Source: Phoronis australis
Taxonomy: Eukaryota; Animalia; Phoronida
Assembly: GCA_002633005.1 (NCBI GenBank)
Contig: NMRA01000059.1
Location: forward strand, 1,079,133-1,143,132
Length of the DNA stretch: 64,000 bases
Direction: 5' to 3'
This document shows positions 7,249-61,020 of this stretch, one piece after another; within the stretch, counting starts at the first letter, position 1; every line of letters begins with the position of its first letter. Both the position numbers and the translations under genes were made by a program. Below the pieces are notes generated by a model, which worked only from the letters and a program-made list of their open reading frames with translations, made no database searches and had not been told where the DNA came from.

Positions 7249-7316
7249 AATAATCGTTGATAGTTGCTTTAGATTGATATTAAAATATTAATCTAAAGCA
7301 ACTATCAACGATTATT
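7249..7316. repeat. Inverted repeat with perfect 27-bp arms
   Basis: aataatcgttgatagttgctttagatt - gatattaaaatatt - aatctaaagcaactatcaacgattatt. Confidence 0.9.
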
Positions 7317-7373
7317 CAGGCAGTCAGTGTAGTCTGACATATTCAGGCAGCCAGTGTAGTCTGACGTATTCAG

Positions 7374-9296: not shown

Positions 9297-9806
9297 CAGG
9301 GCTTGGAATTTTCCGCGGAAACGCGGATTTCCGCTTTTTTCAAATGTTCTTTCCGTGCATTTTATTATATTTCCGCGTAAAAAAATCGGATTTGATAGAA
9401 AATTTCCGCGGTAAATGTCTTTCTTACCGCCGCGTTGCCGACAACTTTCACCTCGAAAAGCGGAAGTTGCTCTTTATGTTTCGGAGGAACGTAAATTGTC
9501 AACATTGCCGGGGCATCTAGGATAGCATGGTGGATTTCCTCAATGGTGGCATGGCGGCTCGTGTGACTGTAAACCGCGGTGACAAATACTAGGACTCTGT
9601 AGCCAAAAAATGTTTGGAGGTAGGAGTGGCAGACGAGCTAAGACAGACGCAGACGCATGCTTCCGGAGGTGGTACCGTTTTTTTTTTTTTTAGCCCTCGA
9701 TTTTGGTCGGCAAAAGGTCCACACTGACTTTTTCAAGGCTGGCTGCACGCATGTTTCGGGCCATAAAAATTTCCGCGCTTTTCGCCATTGGTCATTCCAA
9801 GCCCTG
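9297..9806. mobile_element. hAT-like MITE, copy 3 (510 bp)
   Basis: Near-identical to copy 2, same TIRs and attcag flanks. Confidence 0.9.
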
Positions 9807-10336
9807 ATTCAGGCAGTCAGTGTAGTCTGACATATTCAGGTAGTCAGTGTAGTCTGACATATTCAGGCAGTCAGTGTAGTCTGACGTATTCAGGCAGCCA
9901 GTGTAGTCTGACGTAGTCAGGCAGTCAGTGTAGTCTGACGTATTCAGGCAGCCAGTGTAGTCTGACATATTCAGGCAGCCAGTGTAGTCTGACATATTCA
10001 GGCAGCCAGTGTAGTCTGACATATTCAGGCAGCCAGTGTAGTCTGACATATTCAGGCAGCCAGTGTAGTCTGACATATTCATGTGTTGGTTTCTATGCGG
10101 GGATTAGGTCACAATATCTTTAGGTCAGATGTTCTGTTTGGATTGATTGGGGCTGATGTATCGTGAAGTTTTTTGAAATAAGAAAAGCGTATCGTAACGC
10201 AAGATGATTGACTTCCACATAAGAAAAGGTTCTGTAACTTAAGGAGCTTGAATGAAATTAAAATGTGCCTCAATTTAGAGAAATGGTTGTGCTATAATAT
10301 CTGGGATAACATATATTTCATACATGTCTTATTCCA

Positions 10337-14670: not shown

Positions 14671-15422
14671 AAATTGTCACTACTCTGCAGGTGGGATATT
14701 CAAATGGCTCACACAAATTGTCACTACTCTGCAGGTGGGATATTCAAATGGCTCACACAAATTGTCACTACTCTGCAGGTGGGATATTCAAATGGCTCAC
14801 ACAAATTGTCACTACTCTGCAGGTGGGATATTCAAATGGCTCACACAAATTGTCACTACTCTGCAGGTGGGATATTCAAATGGCTCACACAAATTGTCAC
14901 TACTCTGCAGGTGGGATATTCAAATGGCTCACACAAATTGTCACTACTCTGCAGGTGGGATATTCAAATGGCTCACACAAATTGTCACTACTCTGCAGGT
15001 GGGATATTCAAATGGCTCACACAAATTGTCACTACTCTGCAGGTGGGATATTCAAATGGCTCACACAAATTGTCACTACTCTGCAGGTGGGATATTCAAA
15101 TGGCTCACACAAATTGTCACTACTCTGCAGGTGGGATATTCAAATGGCTCACACAAATTGTCACTACTCTGCAGGTGGGATATTCAAATGGCTCACACAA
15201 ATTGTCACTACTCTGCAGGTGGGATATTCAAATGGCTCACACAAATTGTCACTACTCTGCAGGTGGGATATTCAAATGGCTCACACAAATTGTCACTACT
15301 CTGCAGGTGGGATATTCAAATGGCTCACACAAATTGTCACTACTCTGCAGGTGGGATATTCAAATGGCTCACACAAATTGTCACTACTCTGCAGGTGGGA
15401 TATTCAAATGGCTCACACAAAT
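14671..15422. repeat. 44-bp satellite, 17 identical copies running into an assembly gap
   Basis: aaattgtcactactctgcaggtgggatattcaaatggctcacac; N-gap at 15423-15675. Confidence 0.97.
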
Positions 15423-15675
15423 NNNNNNNNNNNNNNNNNNNNNNNNNNNNNNNNNNNNNNNNNNNNNNNNNNNNNNNNNNNNNNNNNNNNNNNNNNNNNN
15501 NNNNNNNNNNNNNNNNNNNNNNNNNNNNNNNNNNNNNNNNNNNNNNNNNNNNNNNNNNNNNNNNNNNNNNNNNNNNNNNNNNNNNNNNNNNNNNNNNNNN
15601 NNNNNNNNNNNNNNNNNNNNNNNNNNNNNNNNNNNNNNNNNNNNNNNNNNNNNNNNNNNNNNNNNNNNNNNNNNN
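15423..15675. other. Assembly gap (N run)
   Basis: Run of n characters. Confidence 1.
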
Positions 15676-17934
15676 TAAGGAAATATATTTCTGATTATAT
15701 AGGAGACTTAAAGGTTTCTAACTGCTATAAAGAAGGTCCACTTTACATGAAAACATAAAAAATAATTCTACAAAGTTTAACTGGAATATTTAAAGGAAAT
15801 GTGCTGAAAATAGAACAGTAAGTCTACCAAGGAGGGGAAAGAAAAAGAGAGGCAGCCTGTTAGGTTGCGTTTACAGAAGCACTTAATTAGACATATAAAG
15901 ATTACATTACATGAACTCTATGCAACATAAAAATGTGTGAGAGGAGACATTCAAACGTCAAGATAAGTCATTAGCAATCTGTCTTGTTATCATTTTATTT
16001 TGATTTACCAAAGGGATTTCTAGAGATTAATTTGATGTTTGTTCACCAGTTGTGTACAAGATATTTTTTCAAGAATGATATATTTGTGTGTTTGTGTAAA
16101 ATCTACAGACACTGCGAATACCACCTTCTAAACATAAGAATTTCGAGTTTCACGGCAGCAACTGTTTTGAACATCATCTATCAGAAATACTTGAGTTAAG
16201 TCTCACCAATTTAGTACACAATATGGTGGACAAGTAATTTCTTATTTTCTCACTTTTTCATAAAAGATTTGTAGCACAAAATCAAAATCGTTGTTTTTGA
16301 TATTGTAAATGATGCATTGTAGTCACAAAAATACAATGTTTTTAAAATTTTCTGGGCAGTCAGTAACATTAGAAAAACCTTAAAACTAAAATGATTATCA
16401 ACCTGGCGACTGATTCTTCTGAAATTCGTGATATTCAAAGTCAAAGAGTTTAGTCCTGGCCATGGAGAATTGAAGGGTAACAAAGATGTGGTAAACCAAT
16501 TCTCTGTATACTGCTGGTAGACATGGTAAGTGGACACTGTATTTATTACCATTATCATGTTTTTCCTCAAAGCAAGGGTGCAGTTGATCTGTTAGGACTA
16601 TGTTATCTGGGTGAAAGTGATGGCCATTGATAATTAATGCTCCCTGTTCCAGCCCTCACTGTCTCCAGGAGAATATGACAGCTTATGATGACTGTCTTGG
16701 GCAGTCCTGTCATCTTGACCTGTCATCTTGACCTGTCATCACCCTGTCATGGCACTTTTGGAACTTGTGTACTTGCAGGAATTTGGTGTTTCACCTTAAA
16801 GCCATATCAAACTGTGAGAAAACCAGTGTTTTAATCAATGCGGTGTTGGGGATCTCCTTGTTTTTGTTCCAGGGTTGTGCAATAGAACAGGAATATGGGA
16901 CATTAAGTGCCATTAGTGCTTTTGATAACACATGATAACACCATGCTTTGACTGAAGTTATTTGTTTGGATCTACTGCAATATTTCATCATCGCCAGTTT
17001 GAAGTTTGCAATTCTGGCTTGACCTACTTTGCATTATGTGTCGTGCACATGTTATGTATATTGAATATCATGCTCCAGTGTGCCTTCAGTCAACAACACA
17101 TCAGGTGAGCTCAAGAAAAATGTCAGTTATGTTCCACTGGTTTATAGTATTGGATAAAAATTGTTTCGGTATTTGTGTAGAAAAACTTGCAAAGCAGAAT
17201 CTACAAAATATAATCACACCAAAAAGGTAGAACAAACATTAATATCTGATTCTCTCAATCATCCATTTTCTGATTTTTTTTATGTTCCCTGCTTCTCTTT
17301 CAGTTGTTCTTCAGCTTGTTTATTGCTTTCTGGGACTTTCCTAGTTTTCTTCACATTCTTTTGGTAATATTCTGCTACACACAAGAAACCCCTACTCAGT
17401 TACATTTCATTCAAAATGTGGTTGGGTTGGCTCATGGTATCTTAGATCCCCCTGTTAAAGCAAGAGTTGCAGATAAATGCACCAGGTAGTTGAACCCATC
17501 TCAATGGGAGTGTGCCAATTAAGTGGCTGTTGCTAGTTTGTTTACCTGTCTGCTTGGCTTATTGTCCCATTCATCCTGCCTGGCCACAAAACACCTTGCA
17601 TTTATTGTTCTACAATACCTATCTGGAGATTTCCATCTCTGGTGTCAGCGGTGCACAATCTGCTTGCCCAACGACTGCATGCCCTCATTGAAATGACAAA
17701 ATATTGGCTTTGGTTTTTTGTACATAATTACTTTTTTGTCATGTGTCTGATGATGCTCAGCCAATCCTGCTGATTGAGATCTGTCCCAGAATTTTATGAG
17801 ACCAGTATTAATGGTGAATCTTTGCAACACTCTTTTAAGGCCTCAGACAACAATAAAACGAATTTCACATTGTCCTACAGTGACTTGCTTCTTGTTCGTC
17901 TGCGTTTGCTCTTTAGTTTAATGCAGTTTTTCAA

Positions 17935-29946: not shown

Positions 29947-31641
29947 AAGAATTCACAGTAGATGATGACACCATGTAATTGAAACCAAAACTTGTTGTTA
30001 TCGTCAGATTGTTAAGAAGTCCAGAATGAAGGACTTTTCAGTACCTGAAAAACGAAATGGTTGCCTTGTCCGCCATCTTGGATCCGATCATGACTAAAAA
30101 CAATAGGCTTCCAGCACTTTGGGAGTTACAGGTTGTGCGCAAATTTTGTGTGGATAGGATGAAAATTGCGACCTGTAGAGTGCGAACAAAAAAAAACAAC
30201 TTGACGTCAGAGCAACATACTTGGCGAAATTTATTTCGCCAAGTAAAAATGTTAAACACCAGTGGCACGAAAACGAGGCAGCAAATGTGCCTGACGGGTG
30301 TTTATTGCATTGTTTGTAAATAGACCCAGATTCAAGTGTTGCTGTGTAATCCCTATTAAAGATGTCTTGACCTGAGCCAATTGTCTTGTTGTTGGTCATA
30401 TGCATAGAGAAATAACATCAATACAAGTTTCTTTAATAATGTCGTCATGAGTATTGCTGAAAATCTGTCCTATTTATACACAGTGCCTTGGGTACTATTT
30501 AGGAGTTTCTGCTGTTGATCATCGAAGAGTGTGCGTAGATTCAGGAAGTTTTTGAAAATCAAACAAGTGCTTATCCACAGCTTGTCCTTGTGTCTTACCC
30601 GCGATGTGAAAACCTAATCGGTATAAACAATTTTATGTTGTTTAATATCTTTGATTGGCAAATAATTTTTATCTTGCCTTTATCACCACTGGGCCATTTT
30701 ATCAGAGGTCATAGTTCAGTTGTAGTCAAGACAATCGTAGACACATTATCCCCAATACGACAACGCATCGTTTGTTATGAGAGCAAGGTGTTGCAACTGA
30801 CATTCAGTTGATTTTTTTTCAAATTTTAGACTTAACGACCTGCTTTCATGTGTACGAATTAAAAAATAGGTTGCAACTATCTTAGCTAAGACTGTAGGAC
30901 CTTTGATAAAATTAGACCTGCGATTGTACAGTGGTCATGTGCTGCAACACTCTTTGGCAACCAGCAACTCTGAATGATCCTGAAGGATTGGGATCTGAAT
31001 AGCACATATCACAAACATGTTTTAGATTTATGATCACTGTCTTTCCTTTGGGACTAAACTATGGATGGAGATGATGACAACCCTGTCTGCAAATCTTCCA
31101 TAAGTTGACTTGGCCTGTGTGCATAACACACCAATTAAAATTGTTATCTTAATGAAAGAATTGAGAGGTATATTTAGATTGTGGGCACGACCAATGTAAA
31201 TTTTAGGAAGATTATCATATCAGTAGACATTTTTGATTTGTGATTCCAGTTGATTTAGTAAAATTTGTTGCTGCATTCAATGCCTAAGTTGAAATGTTGT
31301 CGAGGACCTCAAGATTCTTACACTTTGCATGACATTGCCGTTATTGTTAGTCCTTTGTTTCCTTACTTCACAACTCAGGAGAGTGGGTCTCCAGATGAGA
31401 CAAGTTTTAGACAAGAGGTTTCTGTTGGTATTATATAGTGTCAATGACTGAACTGTTGGGACAGTCCACTAATCAGTGGGATATGGTTGTTAATTAGGAT
31501 CACCAGCCATTTGGTTCTACTTTTCTGTGTTTGTTAAATCCCTGTGATCATGTTGGTGCTTAGTATGACACCACACATTTACAACACATGTGAAGTTGAT
31601 ATGGGATTTGGCCCCTAGTCAGTTGAAGCAAGTGATATAAG

Positions 31642-31821
31642 GAATGGGTCTGCTTCCCATGGCAGGGATCAGAATGGGTCTGCTTCCCATGGCAGGGATC
31701 AGAATGGGTCTGCTTCCCATGGCAGGGATCAGAATGGGTCTGCTTCCCATGGCAGGGATCAGAATGGGTCTGCTTCCCATGGCAGGGATCAGAATGGGTC
31801 TGCTTCCCATGGCAGGGATCA
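31642..31821. repeat. 30-bp minisatellite, 6 identical copies
   Basis: gaatgggtctgcttcccatggcagggatca. Confidence 0.97.
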
Positions 31822-32883
31822 GTTTTGAAAACTGTGGGTGTGGATGAGTTGACCCACACTACCACAAGTGTTAAAACCAATTTGGAGAACCTATGAGCCG
31901 TGTTATTTTTGGTCTTTTTTGGTTTCGCTAGTCCTGCTGGCATTAATTCAATTTCTGAACAAACCGTCATTTAAGATGCCCACTCACGATATTTCAAAAA
32001 AAAATCATTTTAAACAAGCACGCTAACTTTAACACTCACCATTCGAGCATCATGGGAGTTTAACCCCCCTCCCCCCATTATTCAATAGGTTCTTTATAGA
32101 TTATGCATGATGTTGAGTTTCAAAGGAATCCTGCTAATTAGTGGATTTATGTGGTTGTCTAACTTGTGGACACCTGGTTGGAGAGTCACTGTTAGAGTCA
32201 CCATGTTCCCAAAATAGAAGCAGTGAGTTAATGGTCTCCTTGTGTTTAAACACCCTCTGTTGTTTCATGTCAGATTTTCTTAAGTTCACACATGCCTTTA
32301 ATTAATGTTCCTTAATTGTGCCAAAGGACATGTTTGCCTGAGTTTAAACAGTTTACAATAGGTAGTGATGGAAGGGAGACAGTGTCAGCAGTTATTAATT
32401 ATTCCTGTTGGTGGCACTTCCCAAGTCCTGTTGGTATTTGTTTGGTGTTGGTATGGTCAGTTCCACCAAAGGAAAGGTCCTCCAGCCAGAAAAGTTTTGT
32501 GATGACACTTCACAAGTCAACCCTGTGTGTGGGCCCTGATTATTGAACATGAATTAATTGGGAACACACACTGCTGAGACACTGATGTAACATTACACCC
32601 AGAACTAACATTGGTCTGTTGAGAGGCATGGCCCTTGTGCCCCATGGTATTGAATGGGAATATCAAGACTGATCATTGGATCTTTGACGGGTTAAGATGT
32701 TGTTTAATGTTTTAGAGGATAACTTGTTGACGTTACTAACCAGAAAATAAATAAAGTTCAATAAATTTTCAATGGTTTTGAGAGTAGTGTCTGAGTAAAT
32801 TAATACAAAATCAAATTTCACGGCTAAAAGGGAGGTTGGTATCATGATGACGGTTATTCTGTAAATAGATTGTACCTTTTTAA

Positions 32884-36198: not shown

Positions 36199-36300
36199 GT
36201 GAACAAAATGGACATGAAGATGGATCAAATAATGTTTATGTTGAACACAATCATGAAGCAGAAGACAGTGAATGAAGATTCAAAAGAAGATGCCGTCTGA
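36199..36300 (+). CDS. KCNQ1: KCNQ1 last coding exon, helix D coiled coil and stop
   Basis: gctgttctatttctag| then VNKMDMKMDQIMFMLNTIMKQKTVNEDSKEDAV-TGA. Phase 0 joins IEDK; the heptad pattern matches human VTQLDQRLALITDMLHQLL. Confidence 0.9.
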   Translation: MNKMDMKMDQIMFMLNTIMKQKTVNEDSKEDAV

Positions 36301-43682: not shown

Positions 43683-45244
43683 TTAAATAAAAGAATGGCC
43701 GCAGGCGAACGTGTCTATAGTTTATCACAGGACTGTGGTTTCATTACTTGTAATTTATGAGTTTCCAAATTACTGTTCTTTATTCAAACAAAAGTTAGTG
43801 TTTGATAGAGTGTTTGGTTCCGTTGCCGTATACAGTTACATTTCTTGGTTTGCTTGTAGCGCTATGTATGTAGTCACAGATATTTATGTAACTGCATTTT
43901 CTTCTGAAATATTTTTGTTTACCGACATCAATACACATTACACTCTTGTTATACCTACACGCCCTGTCGTCTAGTGTTGTTCACTGGTAAGGTCGCAGTA
44001 GAGGCTGTCTCCCAGACTGTATGTATTTACCGTGCCTACCTGGGCTACTCAAGTTGTTGCTCCCATTTTACCTCTTCTAGTTTTGGGGCGTGACATGGTT
44101 CCCTGAGCTGTAATCGAAGATATTTCTGAAAAAGAAATAGAAATACCTAAGTTGTAGTGCCCGGTGCCGCGAGAAAAACTGACAGAAATACACCGAGTCG
44201 AAGGAATTCAGTTTGTATTAACTCGTAATCTTAGACTCTAAGATAATACTCGGTTTCTCCTTGGTTAAACATAACGGACTGCATTACTCGCGTGTCGTGC
44301 GCCTACGTAGCGTGCCTCGCTAATGGCATAGTACATGCACTAAGGGTCAGCGACCGGTGGATTCTTATGTTACGTTATTTTGTTGACTAAATATTGACTC
44401 TAAAGAACAGTCTGTGAGATGGTTCAGAGCAAGATTTATTCGTAAATGATTCCGTGCTTGCGTAAGGGCGGAGCTGTAGTAAATCGGCTGCGAGCGTTGG
44501 ACTTGATACGTCCAAAATTTCAGCCTTGTGTGAAAAACTTTTTAGCTGTGTCAGATACATTCGATGGGGATTTTTAAATGGAAAATATCGCCGCTTAACT
44601 GCATTTTTGTTGTGAAAATATATGCCGTTAATAAACTGCTAACGGAAACTAATGAGGTATTTTATATTAATTTTATTCACACACAGTAAGCTAGACCGTT
44701 CATTACCTAACAATTCACAAAATTCACGTCTTCCTAACTTATCCCAGAATGATATGCAAAATGATTTCTGTTTAATTAACAGTTAATGGTGCTTTTCATT
44801 CTGCTGGCTAAAATCGAAACTCGAATTGGGCCTTTTGCGCTCATAAAATCGGTATCATAATATTGCTTACCATGATTATAGTCCCGTTTCCAACAGGAAC
44901 ACCAAAACCATCAGTGACTAAAGAAAATGTTTCAGGAATTTATTGGGGTTGGGAAACCCTAAAATTGCTAAAGTTTGAAAATGGCACATGCACCCATGTC
45001 TTTGGCTTGTTGTCGTGGCAACAATTCAAAACATTGGGATGAGTGTGCAAAGTGTTGTTAAACTGCGTCGAATAACAATTCAACATTGACTACTAAACAG
45101 CGGCGAAATGCAGCTTTATTGAATTAAATCTTTATCAAGTGTTTACTACGCTCTCTGAATCAGCGGACTGGCTGCACCAACTAAAAAAAGCCTACGGTTT
45201 ACGTACAGTTCAACGAATCGCGACCACGACTCCTTGAAAATGAT

Positions 45245-45790
45245 TGACTGGCCACTTGAGAACTATTTTGCTAGCTGTTGACCATTTGATGAGCTTGTCA
45301 CGAAACTCCAGAAACAAAAGTCACGAGCGTATGACGTCACGACTCAATTACGATTTTGTTGCCGATAAAAATCGTTTCGTATGGCTCAGTGGCGACTAAG
45401 TCGCAAGTTATCGGGCCATATCAAACATGTTCGATCGAGCGAAGTCTTACTGGGCCTTGTTGTTTCGTGCGAGTTTGATGGCGATTATTCGTCGTGACCG
45501 AACGAAGTCAAAATTGACCAATATTATTTCAGATTCTTGATAAATGAAAGCTCTGGAGCGTGGCAGCAAATGACCAACGCTCGAGCTGAAGATGGCAATG
45601 AAGAATGCCGTAATGGTACACGCTAAACCAAGCCGCTGTGTATCGTGTGCGGCACATCTTGTCGCCGATAACATGAGACCTCTCGATAAAAAATCCTATC
45701 GTTTTGTGATTCTCACCCCTACTGGCCTACACGCGCGTGGACGTCACTGCGTCACATGATGCTCGTAAAGATTCCTCAAGTCTCTACGAG
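45245..45790. mobile_element. CpG-rich probable DNA-transposon remnant
   Basis: CpG-dense block with repeated tcacga/tcgt motifs and catatcaaacatgttcgat; termini not resolved. Confidence 0.35.
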
Positions 45791-47529
45791 TCCTTCCAGA
45801 TCGACTAACGAGTTTCTGGATTAGTCGTCGATTGTTCCCACAACATTAACATTCAAAATTGTAAATCAGTTTTCCAATTCCTCTATCACAGAACATATAT
45901 TTAGCTTATCATATCACTGATTCAATGAGCTGATGACGTGTGGTTGAGATGGAAAGCTATATAGTTATGTAACAAAATTGTCACGGCGTTAGTTGAAACC
46001 AGATAGCATGTTCTTTCAAGCTGCTATGAACGTTATTTTTCTTTGTAAAAAATTGTACTATCGAGTTACGAAGTCAGATATCGACTCACGGAGTAACTGT
46101 GGTCAGATTTGAACGGGTTGTTGGCTGGAACACTGTAGACATGTGTCTTAGTGGTGCAGTGACTTTCATCTTTCAAGTTAAAAAATAAATATTATTTTCA
46201 CATTTTGCTAACAACGACATATGCTGACAGAAGATTGACTGATTGACATGTTGTGACAGCATTACAAGGCAATCCATTTAACTCGCCACATCATATTAGA
46301 TTACCGTCAAAATTCAATTGCAAAGTAAACACAAGGCATAAACAAATATCCGGACGACGCACCCCCCAGTGATACACATGCATTGGAACACTAGTTTTTT
46401 ATTTGACTTGTCTGTGCGAGTCATGTGTCCCTCTGTATGAATATTTTGCCATCAATTTCAGCTTAATTTCTTGTGCTTGGTTCCAGCTTCAAGCCAAGTC
46501 AAATCAGACCGGACCGTTGTGGACCTTGACTTGTACATGCTAGACAAAACTTCGGGTTACGACCCGCAAGCGATTTTTACCATTTTCCTAGCTACCTGCA
46601 GGTGATATCAAGGGAAAACTTCTTTCCACCATGTTGGATAAACCAACAAGTTTGCCTCAGCGTTGCTGAGAACGTTAAGGTTTTTTTAGAAATGAAATGC
46701 GTACGTGTACAGCTTGAATTCAATATCACTTACGCAAACGGCATAGGATATTCGTTGGATGTCGCCGTGTTTTCAGAGGTTTATGTCGATGTCTCGAATT
46801 CTTGACTGTAGCCTGGCTTATTCGAACAACCAGACAGGCTTCTTGTTTTAAGTGAAAAACGGACGGAAATCCACAAATGCTTTCCTTTTACAGAAATAAA
46901 AACCGTGGGAGTGCGTGATAAGTGGCGGTTCTTCACGAAAAGGCACAGATACTTTTGCGTAGTCTGTGTGCTGGCAAAAACGTTCAGTTAACGTGTACTC
47001 TGGGAGTCGTTTGTTACTCTAAAGAATAATGGACAGTGGACACGGGTGACCCCCAGCTAATGAACTGCAGGTCGAACAGCTCATCATATATTCAACCCAC
47101 ATCCCTTGACTTGTTCTCGGCGTAAATTTGAAGCTTCAATTCCAATATCTTAATTCATGCGGGTCGCCTGCTTTAAAACTGCACCTGCAATCGTGTTTCT
47201 TACACCTGTTCTATGGTTCCAATTCATTGGCAATTGGATTTCAATGCGTCTATTGTGAACTCGTGTTTTAAATTTCAAATCAGTCCAGAAGCTCCCTCGA
47301 GCCATACATATGCGACCACCTGGCATTTGTCAACTATTACAAATGCATGGTTAGATTTATGCCAGGGGGCAGAGATATACACTACACTTCTATAATTTCC
47401 AGCTCTTAAAAGAGACACAAAAAACATGGAGTTCAGTAATGTCCATACTTTACTCTGTACATTTTACCTTCAACAAGATTACTCTTCACAAACCAAAGAT
47501 TTGTGGGACTTAATATGTTTGTACATAAC

Positions 47530-47581
47530 TTTCAGAAGAAAAACATAAAACAAGAATTCTTTTAAGTTGAAAACATTTATT
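47530..47581 (-). terminator. CKI polyadenylation signal
   Basis: tttatt on + at 47576-47581 (AATAAA on -), followed on - by ttcttgtttttatgtttttcttc. Confidence 0.65.
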
Positions 47582-50238
47582 TGTGTTCATGAGATCAGCC
47601 CAAAATGGACATAGTTTACATGTATAATGACTATACAACTACAGCACAGCGTTAACTCCTAAGGGGTCACTTAAAATCAGTAATGAGGGCTTAATCCAAT
47701 CTAAAATGAATTTTGCCCACTACATGTCAATCAGCTACTGGCCCTTTAGGGAACTAACAACTGCACAGGGTATACCTAAAGAAAATTAGACTTGTGAAAT
47801 ATACAAAGAAATATATTAAGGACCAAATATATCACAATTAGATTAACCATACACATTTTAGAACTTTGGCAATGTACAATAATCAGATTAAATCTTCAGT
47901 GCTCATGATTTTAATAAAATATCTAACTATATAATGCTATGGCTGTTTTCAAACCAGGTGATGTTGGTAATGATATTGATAATCTAGAAACCACCACAAA
48001 ATTACTAACTTTAAAGTATATGTACGTGAGATCAAGGTAGATTAACATATCCATGCCCAGGCACCACAATCCGTGCCCAGGCACCCCAATCCGTGCCCAG
48101 GCACCCCAATCCGTGCCCAGGCACCTCAATCCATGCCCAGGCACCTCAAGCACCTCAACTGTAATTTGTATTTAATCTATAATACTTAGAAAGAATTTGA
48201 GACCATATCTGAGTGCTGTTTTTGGCATTTCGATGTTTCTGCTTTAAGTTTCAAGACTTCGCAATTTCTGACAAGAATACCAGAAATCTAACAAAAGAGA
48301 CAATTAATTAAATACACCAATGAGACAACAATGTTACAAACGAAAGCTTCACAAACTGAATGTTACATAATACAAAACATAAACTTTCTAACCACAAACA
48401 TGTTTTCGACAAAAAATAAGTAATAATAAATAATCCAGAAAAAATATATGTACAAAGGTCAAGGCAAAATAATCACAAAAGAGCATAAACTGCTAATTAC
48501 AAAATGCATAAAGCATGCAAGCACATATACAACTGTTAACGGTTTAAGTTATGCTGGCTAATTATTGTATACACATTAAATGGTATTGCCAGACCACCAT
48601 AATGCGGTAGAGTCAGTGCAGGCATTCACAACAGTACAGAAATCTCATAACTACAAAGCAAGTTAGCATCACACTATATTACAAAATTGACATTACAACT
48701 ATTTACAAACCGGTTTCCAGACCCTGTAGAAGGAGAAATATCCCCAATATTTACACTACAGTTTGTCCAGCACACAACCTCAGTAGAGAGAAGCGAAGGC
48801 TTAAACTAGTTGGTCACAAACTCAAGCAATCTCAGGGCTGGATCCAGAGGGGCCAAAGCATTCAAACCCTCACACTCTGCCACTTGTGTGTGGCTGTCAT
48901 GGAGGAAAGTGAATCCCATCTATGCTGTCCATAGTGGAACCCCCGTCTGGTCACGAACCAGGATCTGAGCTTGTAGTCCCATTACAAAGGAACAATGTCA
49001 TATATGCAACACAACCAAATATGCAGTTTACACGACACCACTGACAAAAGTGCAAACCGACGTCGAGCAAAATAATCCAACAACCCTCTGTAAACGTACA
49101 AAGCTTGACATGGAGCAAACAGACCCACTTTGTTACTTTGTTACCAGGTTTGAGGCAAGTCAGATTACCGCGAGTCATCTAATAAGGTAACCGTTGCTTT
49201 ACCAAACACAAAGTTATAATAGTGCGAGGAGAAAATATCTCAGCTGTGCTAATAATCCGTGTTAATTAAAACATTATTCGGAGATATCATGCCGGCACAT
49301 AGCAGTTTTTGATAGAGCACTTCTGCCTTGCCCCACTTTCTACATAAGCCGTGCAGACAGATGCGTACACCGATCATATTGTGCTGGGGCAGTTTGCGCC
49401 ATTTCAACAATATCATCTAAATGCACCATGAATGCAAGAGGCAACTAGTTTTTATAAGAATGAGATCAGGTATAGCACACCTTTCTACCACTCATATGCC
49501 ACAGTTTCAAAAGATGTGCCAGCAGCCCAATTAAGTTTCGACAGCATCAAAACTTTTTGAGCAAATTGCACTTACAATAAGTATCAAACATTCCTCATTA
49601 GCTCACGAGACAAAAAATATTAAAAGACATAATAATTTCAATTTCAATTCAAATGGAAATTTCAAAAGTTTCAAAAGCTGCATCATGTCTACAATAAAAG
49701 CTGAAAGTGAACAGTGCACAAAAATAATCCGTCAATTAGAATAAATTAAACAAAATGTGAAACAGGCTTCTTTCAATAACCATCATTGGCAACACATGCG
49801 AGACAAGTGACCATCAGTTGCTATATATGGTCACACCAAAACAGAAGCGACACCACGTTTAGAATTTCCTTACAACATCTAGCACCAGATACTTTCTAAT
49901 CTGGCTGTCAGCTTATAGCCAGGTTGTCCTTGTTGGCAACCCCACAGTTGAAAGGCCATATCACTTGTGATTGGCTGGCCAAGAAGGTCTGTTAAACTTC
50001 CAACTGTTTGTGGGCTTGGCTCTCAGGTGGTGTACCCTGGTCTAATTAGGACCGCCTTATCAAAACACAGTTTGTCCATTACTCCAGTTTCTGGACACAA
50101 ACCTGGGCAACATCTGTGTTTTAGGCAGGCAGGTTACCACTGGCTCAGCCACTGGCTAGTTTAGGAGCTGGCAATTAGAGTTGTGAGGATGTCAGGAACC
50201 TTCTGTTTGATGGAGATGGACCTGTGATAGTGCTCACT
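47560..50238 (-). other. CDKN1: Non-coding terminal exon (3' UTR) of the CKI gene
   Basis: Perfect donor G|GTAAGT 4 nt after the stop (intron starts 55201). Strong acceptor atttcttttgtttcctttgtag| at 50239/50238. AATAAA on - at 47581-47576 with a U-rich downstream tract. AU-rich, with Pumilio elements and miRNA seed matches. Confidence 0.75.
48049..48160. repeat. 20-bp minisatellite, ~5 copies, in the CKI 3' UTR
   Basis: atccgtgcccaggcacccca; each unit contains the mini-palindrome gtgcc-ca-ggcac. Confidence 0.9.
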
Positions 50239-53200
50239 CTACAAAGGAAACAAAAGAAATATAATTAATTAAACAACACTTATTTTCAGCATGTATGGCA
50301 ATCAAAACGTCATACCATACACACAAATACTGTTTCTGGCCACAGCCAGTTTACATAAACTTTGTAAATTATCAATGAACATGGACATATTTGCCACACA
50401 TGTGAACCAACATATGGTACTGTAGACATTCCATATGGAACACAGATCAGTGACAACTTGTCAACATCTGAGACTCATAAAAATCTGCCTCATTGTCAGA
50501 CTGAACAAATAAGCAGTTGTTTTCAATTTAACCCATAAGACTTCTTTAAGATCCAATGTGCTCCTGGCGTTTATCAGTTTTTTAGCCTTCATACCAGTAT
50601 ACCGTTTCCTGACACTAAAATTGTTAACACACTTCCTATGTTTTCCACTGTTATGAATCTCAACCGCCATCTCAACTTTCAAAGATAGTTTACCCAATTA
50701 CATAATTATGCTTACACTTCATTTATAGTTTAGTGCCAAAACCTCAAAAATTTGTGAACCACAATAGGATAGCCAAGAAAATACCAATATGATAATTTTC
50801 TCACCAAATTAGTGAATAATTTGACCGAAAAATGTAATTTTATTTAAAGAAAATTACCTTTGTTAGTGGCATGAGGCCATGTCAAAAAACAACGCAGAAA
50901 AAACAAATTTCAACAAAAAAATTTGAACTTACTATCCTCACATCACGATTTATATTTTGAAAATGTAAAAAAATTGGTAGCTTCCATTAAATTACTGTAA
51001 TTTGTCATTAATTAGTTGCTTGTAAGTCAACAAGTTTTGAATAATTGCCTCATAAATTCATGAGCATGAGATTCTAATTAATTCAAGTGATATGTTAATT
51101 GGACAACAGAATCGCCTGCCACCAAATATCATTAAACCATAAACTATTCAAAGTTATGATGCTGTGGTAGTGAATGATATGTCCAGCTATGTAAAGAATT
51201 CAGGATAATAACACAGGATCTTGTGCCAAACATTCTTTCCTCCAAAGGCTAGGACAAAGCTGGATAACTCAGTATCAATATTTACTTTGAGCTTGTTATA
51301 ACACTAATAGCCCATTGTCTATGGAACATAGTTATCTAAACAAATTGAACTATCTATAACACATAGTCATTCTATAAGCTTTGTGAGTAGTGCTTCCAAA
51401 CAGTTTTGAGTAGACAGCCAACAACAACAGAATACAACAGAAATGTTTAGCATTCACCCTTTTGGTAGATGAGCAATAACACATTCATTACAATAAAAAC
51501 ATAAAACAATCGCAGACAATGGACTGGGAGTTAAAACATTCCGAGACATTCCGTGGAATTTATTGGAAAAGCTTGCCCGAGTGAGACAAAGCGAAATTAA
51601 TAGGGAATGATATCAACAGTAGGGACATGCCCAGAACTGTTTCATGGTCTGAAGGTGTTTATGTTTTCATATTCGCCTAATGCTGCCTGGGCCTGCCACA
51701 ACTGTATTCAGGCCTAAGCACGCTAAAACACAGTCAATTATGCCCTTTTCAACCTCTATTGACTGCTTTTGAATGGCTGTGAGGGGCAATAGTTATTCAG
51801 CGCTAGGCGTAAATGACCTATTAATATCAAAAGCCGCAACAGAATTAATAACAAACCCGAGCAGGCTGCGTCATTCAGTGGGAGTTTCCAAGTGATTTTT
51901 ATAACTACTCAATTATTGCGTACACAATGAAACCAAACAAGAACCAACTTATTACAATTGCATTTATGCCTGCAAGCTACATTAAAGTGGTTAGACAGAA
52001 TCCAAACCGCTAATGCATAACTAACACTAACAGCCTATACTAATTAGTCAATAAAAAGAAAATGGGATCCATTTCATTGTTAACATAACGAGCAAAACTG
52101 GTTACCATCAAAGGACTAATTTGTAACTGCCATTCACGCAGATACATAACCAAACTGCCAGAGTTTTGTTAGACTCCAAACTTTATCATAGAAAAATCTC
52201 ACAGCTGTGACATCCAGCGAATACCCAAACTTATTAAGATTTTGGCCATGGTTCAAATTCTATCACAGACATGTGACACAGGACAAAAGCTCTACCCAGG
52301 TAGAAATGAACGCTTCAAAACACACACTGGGTCAATGCAGACAGCCATTTAGAGACTGGACCCCTGCCTGGCAGTGTTCCAACAATAGGTACATGTCAAC
52401 ACTGGCGTATACCAGCATTGCTATGTAACCAATAGCAACACACCTGGAGACCAATGGTACTAGGAAAAAAGGGGGGAATACCTGCAGTGGAACAATAGCT
52501 ACTCATAGTACCCTCTTTGCTACGTCCTTATACAAGGAACTTGGTTTAAATATCAACAGTAAGTTAAAAAGTTCATGCACTACCTGTGTATGGTGTTTGC
52601 ACAATACCTATTCCTGTGCACAAACAGGCAGAATAGAAAAGGGCGCCAAATACTGAGAATGACGACACACTGAAGATAACATTAACACCAAATGTATTTA
52701 ACTGCTGATAAATCATGAACAATGTTATTTACCCCCTGAAAATACAGAACCGTGCACACTGTATTATAAAAGATAGAGAGAAATTTTTCTAAAAATAATT
52801 GCATTAATCAAGTACGTGAGAGATTTGGAAACCACAGGGGGTCACAGGTGAATGCATTAAATAAAGCAACCGACATGGTTACCACCTGACAACTTCCGCT
52901 CGATTTGACAAGTAGTCAAAAACATCACTGGATCGCTGTTTGCTTAATTTGTGTTAAAATTAACGATTCAAGATAACATTTATTTCTACAACAAAACAAA
53001 AAAGATGGTTGTACTTGGAATGATTTTCTGCAATAGTTCTCAGACATAGAAATCTTCAAATGCACCAGCATCACATGCCTTTCATTCGGAATTAGTTACG
53101 AAATTCTTTATAATCACAAGCACAAACATGGCTTGGAGTTCATTGAACGCTGAAAAACCTAACACAAGTCAAACACCTCAACTAGATACAACAGCTGACC

Positions 53201-55205
53201 ATCAATGCAGGCTGTGTGAACGACCAGCGATCTCCAACTCGTCAAAAATGTTGTGTTTACTAAGTAAACAAAAAGAAATGGTCTTCAGCAACACTGGTTC
53301 TTGAAATTGCACAACGTTTCTGTCAGGTAAATCACAATTCATTATTTCCAAAGAAGACTGAAGACAAATAAATAAAAACTAAGTCAATACTTGAGAGCAC
53401 AGTGACACATATGACTGGCTACTATTGGTCAGTGGATCAAGTCACTGAACCCTACTGGCAGTGTTGAATATATATGCGAATACATAATATTACCACTTCA
53501 TGAGAAAAAGAGCAAAATCTGGCCATTGACCCCGACAGGCTATCCTTATCTTACATCATGCTACCAAGGCTTATGGAAACCCCCAGGTACAGAATTAAAA
53601 ACAAACTAGTTCAATTGAGAGTTTAATCGCCCTTTGAGAGTAGAAAAGGTAGTGCAAGCACAGCATTTCTAATTCACCTATATAGTAGAATAGCTTTTGT
53701 CACCTTTGTGAAAATGTATCAGAATGGATAAAACAGCCTTTATGTTGTATTTCCTTGTGTAAATAAACACAAGGCCAGAGGGGAAATTCTGGAACATGAG
53801 AAATTGACATCCCGGGTGTAAGTTAACTTCATAGCCATAGAGTTAATAAATTAACAACTCGAAATGATGCACTTCAGAATGCAATGAAGATTCATTATTT
53901 GGTAAAAACTACCAAAATACTTATAGATTTTCAAAAATATTTTGCATTTAGTTTCCACAAAAGAAGAATAGCAAAAAAATCACAAACTCCAGATTTTCTG
54001 GCCACACATTCATAAAATAGTTAATCAATTGAAGCATAAGTAGTAATTAACTGAACAAGCAAATGATGAGTACCCTATAGTCTAGTCAGAACCAATTTCT
54101 AATTATCTTCCACCACCAGTCCTGCTGCTCAAGTTACCACAAACTGTCCTTCACTCCAATCAAACCAACTCAATGCCTGGTCATAAAAAAAGTAAACCCA
54201 TCTCTTTGCATTGACTAATCTATTAATCTTAGCGTCAGCTGTTATCGTTATTTTGACTGGGGGAGTCACGGAGTCTCTCCAGTGACATATAGTTCAACAA
54301 CGAGACAATACTAATTTGTTACCATGAACTCTGCAACAATGAAGCCTGGACTTTCATCTCCCTTAGGTTTCAGTCCATTTCAGATAACCTCAGTGAACTT
54401 GTAGAAAATATCAGGGCTACCTCAGAGATAACAAAAAGTGACTGCAATGGGCTGGGGTTAGCACTCTATCAAAACCTGTCATTATATCCCAGGAAAACAA
54501 TTCAATAATAGCCAAAATGGGAAATTTATCCAACAGCTGATGTCGTGACGTCATTCTGGAGGGCATAAATGCATGTATGTGGCTGATTGATTTTTCACAT
54601 ACAGTTGATAGTCATAGTAAGAGGGGATCAGTGTAAGTAATGATGGCCTGGAGGAGTCTATAAACAAATGGGATTTCCTAAGTGTCAAGAGTTCATGATA
54701 AGTAGTACATGCCAAGCACATAAATTCAACATAATTTTCATAATTTAAGATACTCCACGATACGCTGGTGCATCAAATTATGTACTTGTTTTTTTGATAT
54801 AATTCTCGGTCAAAAGTTCACCACTATTTTTAACACCAGAAAGGAACAAATTGAGATTGCTAGTTAAATGCCATGACGAAAGAGTTCTACAACATCAGAC
54901 AAAAAATGACTAAGAAGCCTTGAGTCGATATCACCACAGTGAAAATCGTACAAAGGAAAAATAAATATTTTTAAAATTAATGAAAAAACTACAAAACTAA
55001 AATTTCCCAGGCCACCAAATTTAACCCCTGAGCTAGAACGAAGCTAACTTTTGCACAACGATCAATCCAAAGGCAATCAGCCCTTCACTCGACAGGCTAG
55101 ATTTTACCTCACTCAAATGAAACTTCTCAATACAGTTGTATCCAACTTTGCAGGCTTTGCTGTATTTTATTCAGCTTCTCAATAGACTGTTATGTACTTA
55201 CCACA

Positions 55206-55330
55206 CTATGTGGTCCTGTGGGGTAACGACTGCGAGGATGAGGTTTGCACAGGCGACAGTGTTCGTGTCTTACTTGGCGGCGAATCAGTTTTGTTGGCAG
55301 ATGTTTTTCTCTTTTTCTTCTTCATAAAAT
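55206..55330 (-). CDS. CDKN1: Cip/Kip CDK inhibitor coding exon 2 (PIP degron end, NLS, QT-like tail)
   Basis: aatgttttag|AT completes Asp: (D)FMKKKKRKTSANKTDSPPSKTRTLSPVQTSSSQSLPHRTT-TAG. The spliced junction reads QAPITDFMKKKKRK, like p21 QTSMTDFYHSKRR. Total CDS 498 nt = 165 aa plus stop. Confidence 0.92.
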
Positions 55331-56516
55331 CTAAAACATTACTAACAGTTATACACAGGAGCCCACAAATTGGACAAAAACTAAGCAAGAGACATGACTG
55401 CAAAGACACACTGCACTGGGATTTGTACAAATAACAACTTGATCAAACCAGATGACATTTAAATAAAGCAATGCTGTTGCATGCTTTTGACCTGTAAATC
55501 TTATGCATCACACTTCAAACACAGTGCAAACTGTACTTGACAAAGCCATTTTACACTAATCAAATACCAGAGTTAGGCAACTGTCCCAAGAAATGAACAA
55601 ATGGGCAATTAGTTCACTTCTATCAATAGTTTCGGCACTGCTCTGCAGCAAAACATTTTTCAAATGTCACTAAGCTTTTCTCAACAGATACCATGTTGAT
55701 CTGATATGCTGTCACCAATGATTTTCTGCACCACTTCACTTCAGGCCTGTTGCAGGGCCAAGCAATGACCAATCACCTACACCATATAATTACCCTCTTC
55801 AGCAAACAGAATGAACAACTGTTCAGATTCTTAACACTCAACTGATTACCACATAATGGTCTTGAATTTTAGTGGTGCCTTCCTTACAGTCAAGCAATCT
55901 AGCTAACACAAACACAACAATTCAAGATTTTGTCTGCAGGAAACATGGGTAGAGGAAAGTTACCTGTCGAGAATCCTGTCATTTTTCAACTGCATTCTGG
56001 GATGGTGATATCACATTCAACTTTTGTAATTTGCATTTGAGTGGTGAGATTGCATGACTGGATGGGCAGGCCTTGAAAATTTCTGTGTAAAAGATTTGCC
56101 AATATACATTACATTTAAAAGTTCTATGCATTTTGAGGCTGGCTTTCAATTTTTTAAATTTTATACGTAATGATTGCTTTGTCATGATCGCAAAAAAAGC
56201 ATGTTGCAGTGGAACCATACTTTCAATTCAGGTGCGCTCAAGCAACAAGTGTTACATCCAGTCACACTGTTTACACCTCACCATGTTGTATGTACTCTCA
56301 CTGGATGATACAGCTGACAACCATTCCACAAGGCATTTGAAAAGAGACAAGATTATATCCCTTCAATATTGACACCAGTTGGTTTGCACTTTTTGGGCAT
56401 TCATTACCAATGGCCAGTACATATTAACCATACTGAGAATACTACAGTACTATTTTCTTAGTGTCTTATGTCATCTGATGCCTGTGTTCAATATACATGA
56501 TTGATGGTCCACGACA

Positions 56517-56616
56517 CAGGTCAGTGCTGATGCATGGCCAGGGACAGGGTAGTGTACACACTCAGGTCAGTGCTGATGCATGGCCAGGGACAGGGTAGTG
56601 TACACACTCCAGGTCA
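56517..56616. repeat. 46-bp tandem duplication in CKI intron 1
   Basis: caggtcagtgctgatgcatggccagggacagggtagtgtacacact twice. Confidence 0.85.
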
Positions 56617-58354
56617 TGAGTGACTCAAGTGTTCACCTTCAGAGTGGACAATGTAACAACAGAAAGATGGTGCCTATTGAATAATTGCAAAGGAGTGTTC
56701 CCTGGATTCCTTACACCTTCTCCTCCAATCACTACACACTCCTCTAGCAAAAATAATGTATTACAACTGATCCCATGGGGTGATTTCATGGCCTAGATAC
56801 ACACAAATCAAGTCCTATCATGATGTCATGTCAGTTAGGTTAGTAACAGCACATATTGACACTTGACATTTACTTGCTCAGTTAAAACACCAGTTCACTC
56901 AAATGAAGTTCTATATTACCTTGTTCTTGAAAATTTCTGCTCATTATAGTTAAAAGGGTGAAAATCAGGCAGATTTTTAGCCTGTTGCCAAGGACTGACA
57001 AGCGCTTGTTGGACAAGAGCCAAACAAGAGCAGTAAGCCTTGAATGGTAACCTAATTTGCCATTTAAGCCTTGCCACACAACCAAATGTGGCTTGCCCTA
57101 GCTAGGCTATCTAATCAGAACTGTTTTCAACATTAATTGCGTAATGGAGACCCGGTGTCAACGTACTATCGTTCACAAAGATATCCATCTGCTCCAATCG
57201 CACTTGTTCCCTACCAACGGACTTAATCTTATAATTCAGAGGCAGCTTAAACAATGGCCTTTCACCTTTACAAGAGGTACTCTACTAATGAACTCCTACT
57301 GATAGATAGTTTAAATGAAAACTAGGTGAAGGTGTAATTAATTTATCACAACATCTGTCAGTGTGACAAGGCACTGGTCAATAACCTATAACTCCTTGCG
57401 GGGTGTTGTCCTTTGCAAGTTAAATGTTACTATTACATGACACTTGGACAAACAAAGACCTCTAAAAGCAATATCAATCAATCGGCTATTTATATGAAAT
57501 AAGCAGCAAACTTAGTCGTATTCCAATAGAAATCTGTGTGAGCCAAGGGCCAACATCTGCTTGTGAAAAATCCAAAATGTAGGTAATTCAATAGAACAAT
57601 GGCTATAAAACAAAGACGAAAATAGTAAATGACTCCAAAAGAATCAAAAATCCCACAAAGGCAAGCTTCTTTGTTGATCTGGATGTGTTATTTATGAAGG
57701 TAAACGCATACAACTCAAAATATCAATTACTTCGATTTAAAGCCTCATCATTAAAAACCATGCTTTTGGAAAGTAAAATTTTGTTTTATTTCTTAGGGTG
57801 GCTAATTAGCATTCCTAATTAGATATAAAGCCATGTAACCAATGCAATTAACGATAAGCAGTACTTCAACCAATCAAAGCCAAAACTTTGATTATAGCAT
57901 TTACATTGGCTTCAAACACAAGACAGGTGAAAAAACTTTTTTTCCAAGTGAGTCAAAATCAGGGTATAACAGTGGCATTGTAATAGACCATCATCATCGT
58001 TAAAGTTTAGAATAAATTTCATTTTCTTCATCTAAAATGTGTGGTACCTTAACAGCTTCACTGACACTTCAGTTAATCTGACCTTAAATGCAGTATTTAT
58101 CCCCAGGACAGCTCATGTAAACCAGTGCTTTATCACTAGAACAACCCTTGAAATCACTTGCTGAGTGATTGACAAAGGCTGACAAGCAAGGGATATGACA
58201 AGCAGAAGATTTGGATAAGTGCCAAAATCACTACTGTCCAGGTCATCAAAAGTGCACACATGACTGCTGGGCAGAGGCATGGAATGCTCACTGAACAACA
58301 CCTCTCACTATAGTCTACAATTGAACAAATCATTTAGATTAGTGATTCCGCGCA

Positions 58355-58374
58355 AAACATGTCCAAGCATGTCC
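58355..58374. promoter_or_regulatory. p53-family response element, perfect consensus, no spacer
   Basis: AAACATGTCC AAGCATGTCC = (RRRCWWGYYY)x2, both with CATG cores, in CKI intron 1. Confidence 0.8.
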
Positions 58375-58426
58375 AGGAACAATACGTGAAAAGTTGAACT
58401 GTTATCTGCTTATAACCAAAGTCTGC

Positions 58427-58446
58427 TGGCAAGCTTAGTCAAGTCT
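58427..58446. promoter_or_regulatory. Second p53-family response element (18/20)
   Basis: TGGCAAGCTT AGTCAAGTCT; both CWWG cores intact, no spacer, 52 bp from the perfect site. Confidence 0.55.
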
Positions 58447-59385
58447 GAAGCGAATGCTCAGGAAATTGGTACAGAATTGTTAAAAACACCTAATTCTATT
58501 AAGGTTTCACTGTCCAGATTAAAGAAAGTTTTTAGTCGTTTATATTCTATTGAAACGATATGAAACTACATGTTGAGTACTAGCACAGTACTAGTTAGAT
58601 CAGGTTGCAAGTGTAATCTTCATTATACAATACAATCTAGCAACAAATACGATGCACGTTTTTGCGTGGAAATGATTAGTCACAAAATCTACAGAAACTC
58701 AGTCATTCGCCCACGACAGAAACTAGCGTGGTATTACTTTTCGTTCAAATCGTGAATAAATAATTCATCCACAGGCCACCGAATTACTAACAGGTTTCAT
58801 ACTACAAAGTTGGAATACGTCGTAAATTCGCAAGTGTGATGTCAACATTCCCGTCACTCAATATCATTGTCACAAATCGGCAATAGTCACTTAGTCCCTG
58901 GCAGCCGATGGGATAGCGAGCATCGGTTTCAAACACAAAAGAACAAGCGTTGTTTCGCGATTCCTTAACTCTCATAATCTACAACCACTAAACCTAACTA
59001 TTGTAAAAAAATCACCAAGGTGGGTTTATTTACTTCAACTGTTTACGTGTTTACTTGATTGTAATATTCTAGCAGTCGTAGCAAAAAAAAATAAGAATCG
59101 CAAAAGTCCCGACTTGGCGTAGTAAACAAACAATAAAAAAATAATTCTCAATAATTTAATACCCTCCCATCATTTCGCAAATATTGCTCAACAAATTTTC
59201 AGCTTTTACACTATTTGGTTAAAACTTCACTTTACCTATCATTTAAAAAAACACAAATCTAACCGAATGAGTCAAGTAAAACTTCCTTATTATAAAAAGC
59301 AGCTCAAACAAACGAGCATCAACAAGACACAAGCTTACATCATATGACAACTAGGTCAAACAGCGTAGTAGGCAGAGATACGAAC

Positions 59386-59758
59386 CTGTAATAGGCGCTT
59401 GCCTCGTAGGCCTCGCACTAGGCTCAGGATCGTTTTTATCCTCAGGCTTATTATTTACAATAGTAGGTTCGTTCGTACTTCCAACAGGAACAAGATGTAT
59501 TCCAGTAGCGCCGTAGGCAGCTGGAACATTTGAGTTAGCGTCCACGGGCAGCCACTCGAATCTTCCCGGTTTGGGGATGCCCTTCTGGAAATCAAAATTC
59601 CAACGGTCCGCGGCAGCCTCTCTCTGCTTACTTATGTTTTCTTCTAACCATTGCTTTGTTTGGTCGTGATCTGGTCGGCCAAACAAGCACCGGCAGACGC
59701 CTTTTGATGGTGTGATACTCCTCGGCGTGTCGGACATCCTCTGCATAAGAGTTGGCAT
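59386..59758 (-). CDS. CDKN1: Cip/Kip CDK inhibitor (p21/p27/p57/dacapo family), coding exon 1
   Basis: First ATG at 59758 (the track start at 59773 is TTG, with an in-frame TGA at 59779-59777). Cyclin-binding CRCLFG, CDK-binding RWNFDFQKGIPKPGRFEW and VPAAY. Ends RQAPIT-G|gttcgt, phase 1. Confidence 0.95.
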
Positions 59759-59796
59759 ATTTTCAGATACCAACCCTCACGTCTCCAGATGAAATC

Positions 59797-59900
59797 ACTA
59801 ACCTATGTTATCACGGTGCAACAGCTTTTATGCCATAGCCTATCCAAATAAGGAAGCGTTGATCACGTGACTATATATTGAAACAATTTGATTGGTTGAA
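59797..59900 (-). promoter_or_regulatory. Candidate CKI core promoter
   Basis: On -: CCAAT at 59895-59891, extended E-box GTCACGTGAT at 59871-59862, TATA variant CATAAAAG at 59832-59825, and Inr-like TTAGT with its A at 59799 (~32 nt below the TATA, ~40 nt above the ATG). Confidence 0.5.
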
Positions 59901-61020
59901 GCTTTCCTCGGGCGTCAGCGAGACAAAGCGCTAAGCAGTCGATTAGACACCGACAACATCACAAAATTTGCAAGAAACGTGTCTTTACTTTTGAGAAAAT
60001 GTTTTTCAAAAGACTTAATGACTATAGTTTGAACGATACGACCACTATTGTTTTCTATACTCACTTTAATCCACGAAAACGTCCAATTTACCTTCTGGCT
60101 GTTAATAAATTCTCTGTAGGCGGAGCGTAGTTGACAGTTTGCCAACACACGCGACAGTCATTAGCATATCAAGGCCTGAATAGATTTGGTGGTAAACAAA
60201 TTCTATTATTACTATATACAACAAAAGCGTGTGTGTGTGTACGATATTGCACTCAGTCATGCCATGAGGGTTGTCGACAGCTGTCGCATTTACATCCAAT
60301 AAGACAATGTCAAAGTCGGTTCAAAGTGACTTATGCAAAATTTGCGAGGATTTTTGAATAATTTGAAGAGAGTCACATTCACGGGATGCTAAATACTTAG
60401 ATGTCATGACGATAGTCATTCAAAGCTACGATTACAAGAGTGTTTGGCAAATGAACCAGTAACACAGCAAGTGGTCGTATTAGTGGGCCTTGAACCCTGA
60501 GCCTTTTGAGCACGTAAGCTTGAGTCTTGTCTTGGTCACCGATTTTAATAATCTCAGTCCCCTGAACTGTTTTGTGGTTTGAGCATTAGTATAGAATAAT
60601 CAATGACACATGAACGTTCGTTTCAGTCAGCAAGAGTCTCGATTTGGAACGTGTCACAATTTCACGTTGAATTTTGGTCTGAACTTTGATTAAGGAATCT
60701 TACCGTCATAAAGCTATTTCTCCCTAGCTCAGAAATCAAATAGATGTTATAACGACATGCGGTCAAAAGTTAAGTTCCTTTTTATTCAAATTAGAAGGTG
60801 CATGGGAAATAATGGCAGTTGGTTTTTGCAGCGATTCCATGGTCTGTGTGAAGAATCATAGGCTTGCTGTGAGTCCCTGCAAGAAGTAACGAACTATCTC
60901 TTTTTCTCAAGTTCAGTTATCACTTCTAGTAATCTGAGACCAAGTTTATAACGCGAAGTGAGATAAATCTTAATTACTTTTTCACAGAAGGCGAGTTTCA
61001 TAGCAAACATGAGGGAAATG

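Follow-up and report, generated by a model that had tools for sequence, protein, structure and literature searches.

Three bantam 8mer sites in the 3′ UTR of a Cip/Kip CDK inhibitor gene: a predicted microRNA target in a lophotrochozoan-like genome

Introduction

Does a growth-promoting microRNA of protostomes act directly on the brake of the G1/S transition outside flies? The question is raised by a window of 64,000 bases of genomic DNA (the whole stretch analysed here), in which the last exon of a minus-strand gene for a CDK inhibitor (CKI) contains the same 8-base match to the bantam seed three times. The growth role of bantam rests mostly on work in Drosophila. In flies, bantam is controlled by the Hippo pathway (PMC6653758), and Yorkie activates it during neural stem cell reactivation (PMC7179833). 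If bantam does repress the CKI of the window, a growth microRNA of protostomes would be linked directly to the G1/S brake, and the three seeds in the untranslated region (UTR) make the target prediction precise and cheaply testable.

The CKI gene and its mature transcript

Exon 1 of the gene (59386–59788, minus strand) contains a short 5′ UTR, the ATG at 59758 and the CDI domain, for which the minus-strand ORF 59758–59386 matches Pfam PF02234 with 63.8 bits (cut-off 25; E = 1.5e-17). The N-terminal domain includes the cyclin-binding RxLFG and WNFDF motifs, the columns of which are conserved across 37 homologues, and the protein matches p27 and p21 chains, with E = 4.5e-11 for the p27 chains. 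By its domain and these matches, the gene is a Cip/Kip CDK inhibitor of the p27/Dacapo family, in agreement with an earlier note on this DNA that had called it a CKI; inhibitor activity is predicted. A HMMER protein search gathered 631 distant CKI relatives, and a word-index protein search returned no CKI relative at first and later a single rodent fusion. Two loci from a metagenome scan for CKI orthologues were rejected as spurious 20-residue matches in stop-ridden frames, and none of the 58 candidates from a viral scan was a CKI orthologue.

Exon 1 ends in phase 1 within a Q-x-x-I-T-D-F motif, which is interrupted by the first intron (59386/55330). Many of the homologues from the HMMER search read Q-x-x-I-T-G at the corresponding end and then continue into unrelated sequence, which suggests that the intron position is widely shared among CKI homologues and that some gene calls read through it. 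Exon 2 (55202–55330, minus strand), placed by the gene model and the RNA joints, holds the stop codon 4 nt before its donor, together with what we take to be a PIP-box-like DF and a basic KKKKRK stretch. Counted from the first ATG, the protein is 165 amino acids long and its reading frame is intact. Exon 3 (47583–50238, minus strand) is entirely non-coding and forms a 3′ UTR of about 2.7 kb, as delimited by stranded RNA depth; none of four ORFs tested within it had a Pfam match above the cut-off.

Four public RNA runs (X1–X4), labelled as one species and with no small-RNA run among them, were mapped to positions 45500–60300, and both splice joints are supported in all four. Joint 55330/59386 is spanned by 24, 25 and 149 reads and joint 50238/55202 by 60, 51 and 225 reads (X2, X3 and X4, respectively), in each case together with the X1 contig, a spliced contig of 3169 nt (RNA by the program's guess) that spans 59786 to 47583. 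First mates lie almost wholly on the plus strand over the CKI region, which indicates minus-strand RNA, as in common stranded libraries. Stranded depth ranges from 18 to 215 across the last exon and is zero below 47476, and read ends fall at 59781–59788 at the 5′ end of the gene. A putative additional exon at 55966–56075 was ruled out, because RNA joins 59386 straight to 55330.

A polyadenylation signal, AATAAA, lies at 47576–47581 (minus strand) and is followed by a U-rich stretch; RNA depth stops here. Cleavage is expected beyond the signal, some tens of bases past the mapped end of exon 3, and the site is a prediction because no poly(A) tail reads occur among the RNA reads listed for the CKI 3′ end. 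Two ATTAAA signals (48176–48171 and 47915–47910, minus strand) are found upstream of the main AATAAA, and their putative use would drop two bantam sites or one, respectively, from the transcript.

Three exact seed matches within the 3′ UTR

An exact search of both strands of the 64,000 bases found TGAGATCA exactly three times, always on the plus strand, at the positions 47590, 48027 and 49461 that the earlier note had given. In mRNA sense (minus strand), the sites occupy 49461–49468 (UTR position 775), 48027–48034 (UTR position 2209) and 47590–47597 (UTR position 2646, with the polyadenylation signal 8 nt downstream). The word is an exact match to nucleotides 2–8 of oyster bantam-3p with an A opposite nucleotide 1, and the note's reading of it as a bantam seed match, an 8mer complementary to that seed, is upheld. 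RNA depth and splice joints place all three sites within the spliced mature mRNA, well beyond the stop codon, and do so independently of the motif; the most 3′ site, 47590–47597, lies within the X1 contig and under X4 reads that start at 47585 and 47589. The earlier assignment of the sites to the CKI 3′ UTR is thereby borne out, and the concern raised with it, that they might fall outside the mature mRNA, is answered by the reads.

The possibility that the word is read by a protein rather than a microRNA has to be weighed at this point. It is an imperfect palindrome, and a DNA-binding factor might recognise the spaced form TGA-N2-TCA, or an RNA-binding protein might bind it in the transcript; moreover, three copies share one strand by chance with P = 0.25 only. 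Protein-binding sites are, however, usually degenerate, whereas the 6-mer core appears three times in the UTR, each time as part of a complete 8mer, and just one single-mismatch neighbour of the word is present there. Furthermore, every copy is in exonic UTR and none is in the 9 kb of introns or near the promoter; outside exon 3, the other 61,345 bases of the window hold no copy on either strand. A protein reader of the word is very improbable.

The flanks of the sites are mutually unrelated (12–14 of 40 positions identical), so the sites are not copies of a repeat. A 20-nt tandem repeat of about five copies (48049–48149) adjoins the middle site but does not contain it, and a repeat origin was ruled out on both grounds. 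The array is length-variable, being 49 nt shorter in X1.

For UTR positions 775, 2209 and 2646, respectively, the A+U content of the flanks is 0.63, 0.65 and 0.73, predicted accessibility ranks at the 86th, 38th and 85th percentile, and pairing energies are −10.9, −13.4 and −12.1 kcal/mol, against −13.9 ± 2.2 kcal/mol when the seed is set in random flanks. None of the three sites showed additional 3′ pairing to oyster bantam. The spacings between them, 1434 and 437 nt, far exceed the range of cooperative microRNA sites. Seed-only, additive action is inferred from the lack of 3′ pairing and the wide spacing. Counted in favour of repression by bantam are the location of all three window copies in the UTR, each in mRNA sense, and the high predicted accessibility of the two outer sites; counted against it are the low percentile of the middle site and the missing 3′ pairing.

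The triple under chance models

Across the whole window, a count of three is ordinary for this word (shuffle mean 3.01; 60 of 100 shuffles reach three), and the unusual feature is its clustering in one 2.66-kb exon rather than the window-wide count. Dinucleotide shuffles of a 2683-nt UTR model gave a mean of 0.049 copies; six of 5000 reached two copies and none reached three. Markov models of orders 1–4 gave 0.04–0.10 expected copies per UTR. Both approaches match the 0.05–0.1 copies in 2.7 kb that had been estimated beforehand, and the sole model above 0.10 was an order-4 Markov model trained on the UTR itself (0.30).

With the tandem repeat masked, the bantam word, TGATCTCA, ranks first by enrichment among the 651 A-ending 8-mers present in the UTR and third among its 2419 8-mers overall. 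Similarly, when 300 composition-matched, CpG-free 8-mers were counted, 288 were absent, 11 occurred once and one, the bantam word, occurred three times.

A neutral triple could nevertheless have arisen in a long UTR and been noticed since its word matches a familiar seed. In 56% of UTR shuffles, at least one A-ending 8-mer attains three copies, and the signal therefore lies in the word's conserved seed identity and not in the existence of a triple. The probability per UTR is about 2e-5; corrected for 50 conserved microRNA families, it rises to about 1e-3. If 20,000 genes and a mean UTR length of 0.8–2 kb are assumed, chance alone would yield 3–44 genes per genome with three 8mers for some one of 50 families, so that chance cases are to be expected when a whole genome is scanned. 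For bantam itself, however, the expected number is only 0.06–0.9 genes per genome, and the match falls on a gene family with a published fly precedent. The first rank of the word among A-ending 8-mers, together with the fact that no change in it is listed in X1, also weighs against this account. A chance origin of the triple is unlikely, and the account built upon it is improbable as an explanation of the locus.

Sequence variation in the UTR

The X1 contig is labelled as the same species but is diverged by about 3%: over the UTR, 71 of 2607 aligned bases differ from the window (2.7%), in addition to indels. All four runs, X1–X4, keep the site at 49461 intact, among the 23 of 27 X1 substitutions listed, and the site at 48027 shows no change in X1 among the 40 of 116 differences listed. 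The site at 47590 is close to the end of the X1 contig, and the comparison covers the other two. At 2.7% divergence, two 8-mers would both be intact by chance in 64% of cases, and retention in X1 is therefore weak evidence.

The first bantam site lies in a low-substitution block of 530 nt (49384–49913, minus strand), which has one listed substitution and three indels relative to X1; none of 5000 random placements gave a block as long, for a block that was chosen after the fact. A second block of 383 nt (48150–48532) also has one listed substitution, against 2.7% overall. The two blocks may contain further regulatory elements. Neither has an Rfam match, and Rfam models matched nothing in the 64-kb window at gathering scores, nor in 45000–60500 at E values up to 1.

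Pumilio elements and other words of the UTR

Three elements in the UTR conform to the Pumilio consensus UGUAHAUA (PMC6444939): TGTAAATA at 48748–48755 and again at 48700–48707, and TGTACATA at 48447–48454 (all minus strand). Three copies compare with a shuffle mean of 0.35 (P = 0.004, for one of ten motifs tried), and no copy is present antisense in the UTR or in the 9 kb of CKI introns. None of the three has a listed substitution in X1.

The word GATTATT provides a cautionary parallel. Six copies occur in the UTR (49723, 49251, 49071, 48468, 48429 and 47878, minus strand) against 0.39 expected, a count that none of 2000 shuffles reached, and none is found antisense or in the introns. Three of the six copies are nevertheless changed in X1. 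As this word is equally enriched yet looks unconstrained, strong enrichment can evidently arise without selection, a point in favour of a neutral origin of the bantam triple; the bantam word, where it can be checked, shows no comparable decay. A reading of GATTATT as a microRNA seed match was not supported, because in the oyster it corresponds to the 3′ end of miR-96a (two of six occurrences listed) and because half of its copies differ in X1. The copy at 48429 overlaps an AU-rich nonamer, TTATTTATT.

Two further microRNA-like words are near background. TGTCTC, a 6-mer match to miR-1994, has four UTR copies, one of them a 7mer-A1, and was set aside because it is also frequent in the introns (five copies in 9 kb). 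GTTGCCAA, with two UTR copies, contains a 6-mer match to the seed of oyster miR-96a.

The host and the neighbouring KCNQ1-type gene

The identity of the host was approached through the convergent neighbour of the CKI, a KCNQ1-type gene on the plus strand with exons at 4024–4194 and 4927–5031 and its last coding exon at 36199–36300. Its last coding intron (4927–36199) is apparently about 31 kb long, includes an assembly gap and holds tandem arrays, for example at 7300–10100, 14600–15700 and 31600–31900. Among 120 proteins, two variable exons of the gene score highest against a nemertean, gastropods, Owenia and Lingula, and far lower against a hemichordate and vertebrates.

When 34 named proteins were compared over 124 columns, the 16 most similar were all lophotrochozoan (similarity 0.77–0.66), with Lingula and Tubulanus at 0.77 and Owenia at 0.75, compared with 0.62 for Ptychodera and 0.55–0.56 for vertebrates. 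The 34 proteins were chosen from the 120 for their species names and include one invertebrate deuterostome and no echinoderm or amphioxus; a tree of the 124 columns did not resolve the host branch. Judged by its KCNQ1 protein, the host is very probably a lophotrochozoan. The protostome host that the earlier note had supposed is consistent with a similarity that is clearly lophotrochozoan, and it is graded likely.

The family of bantam, miR-58, miR-81 and miR-82 is placed in Protostomia in a table of about 50 conserved families, and the supplement to the same oyster study lists reads for bantam-3p in all 21 libraries shown (PMC4138081). Because the table assigns the family to Protostomia as a whole, bantam would be expected in the host, and we infer that the host makes it. 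The window itself does not include the bantam locus.

The KCNQ1-type gene (4024–36300, plus strand) and the CKI (47583–59788, minus strand) are arranged tail to tail, with about 11 kb between the KCNQ1 stop and the CKI 3′ end; none of 15 ORFs tested in this interval is recognised by Pfam. Human KCNQ1 and CDKN1C are likewise convergent, and the pair in the window echoes this vertebrate arrangement, the imprinted Beckwith–Wiedemann domain. KCNQ1 and CDKN1C belong to a domain conserved in human, mouse and tammar, in a region described as conserved to chicken (PMC2427030). The parallel suggests that KCNQ1–CKI is a gene neighbourhood of bilaterian age. Literature searches listed no invertebrate report of the adjacency, and the pair is absent from the main text of a metazoan microsynteny survey (PMC3514665).

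Proposed mechanism and its evolutionary depth

The explanation favoured here, on the strength of the UTR sequence, is that bantam probably represses the CKI through seed pairing alone, probably together with Pumilio, and so frees cyclin–CDK for entry through G1/S. Bantam-loaded Argonaute would pair nucleotides 2–8 with each site, with an adenine opposite nucleotide 1. At 8mer sites, Argonaute pairing triggers deadenylation and translational repression. The three sites would act additively, CKI mRNA and protein would be lowered, and entry into S phase would likely be eased. Co-repression by Pumilio is likely by analogy with mouse Cdkn1b.

How old such a link might be is a separate matter. Banerjee and Roy (2017; Dev Biol 423:57, PMID 28109717, cited in PMC12064045) reportedly described, to judge by the title of their Drosophila paper, a bantam-based down-regulation of Dacapo. 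The earlier note had likewise named a link between bantam and dacapo repression; a paper so titled does exist, but a review gives miR-7, miR-278 and miR-309 as the microRNAs that act directly on the fly dap 3′ UTR, without bantam among them (PMC9967906). No report of a bantam–CKI link outside flies, lophotrochozoans included, was found in the open-access literature, and the available portions of PMC11441523, PMC9008705, PMC3840308, PMC5788515 and PMC11160599 contain nothing on it. In the excerpts of a C. elegans paper that includes both cki-1 and miR-58, no link is drawn between them (PMC5555458).

These reports bear on a second alternative, in which bantam does target the sites, yet they arose as a lineage-specific gain or have only a small tuning effect; most of the repression would then come from Pumilio, from AU-rich elements or from other microRNAs, and no circuit would be shared with flies. 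The direct regulation of fly dap by other microRNAs and the silence on cki-1 and miR-58 would fit it, as would sites that are seed-only and widely spaced in a UTR with three Pumilio elements. Against it stand the three 8mers, which are independent and differ in their flanks, and which suggest that strong repression was selected for more than once. The alternative overlaps with repression by bantam as proposed above and differs from it chiefly in effect size and age; in its own right, it is possible but rather unlikely.

Beyond repression in the host, bantam and Cip/Kip may form an ancestral protostome pair, kept in flies and lophotrochozoans and set upon an older bilaterian CKI design in which vertebrate miR-221/222 occupy the same slot. 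The older design would consist of a CKI next to KCNQ1, a non-coding last exon and Pumilio elements. To our knowledge, few individual microRNA–target pairs are conserved between animal phyla. An ancestral pair is put forward here tentatively, as a possibility with the odds against it; were it true, it would be one of the rare microRNA–target links that span phyla, and would offer a direct handle on spiralian growth and regeneration.

Comparison with known systems

The closest precedent is bantam and dacapo in Drosophila, which involves the same microRNA family, the same Cip/Kip target family and the same predicted effect, release of the G1/S brake. In contrast with dacapo, the gene described here belongs to a different superphylum and has three perfect 8mers in a 2.7-kb UTR, as target sites predicted from sequence. 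With this fly precedent and a vertebrate analogue, the three-site UTR represents a strong, RNA-anchored prediction of a bantam target in one lophotrochozoan-like species.

Another fly gene, tribbles, is comparable in that it encodes a cell-cycle brake and is repressed through more than one predicted bantam seed match in the 3′ UTR; its two sites were found to be functional by seed mutation in flies (PMC6653758). It differs from the CKI of the window in having two sites rather than three, in acting at G2/M through cdc25 and in encoding a protein of a different family.

The vertebrate analogue is CDKN1B, in which the stop codon is in the penultimate exon and the last exon is non-coding, a gene layout like that of the CKI described here. 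In mammals, the 3′ UTR of CDKN1B/p27 is targeted by miR-221 (PMC8728526), and in mouse Cdkn1b two Pumilio elements repress translation (PMC6444939). Mammalian CDKN1B thus resembles the window CKI in combining several sites for one growth-promoting microRNA with UGUAHAUA elements, whereas the window CKI has three Pumilio elements, located hundreds of bases from the microRNA sites. Over such distances, a local structure switch of the type described for p27 is not indicated. The microRNA families are also unrelated, as bantam is protostome-specific according to the oyster table. If repression by bantam holds, the same mRNA would have come under the control of Pumilio and a growth microRNA in protostomes and vertebrates separately.
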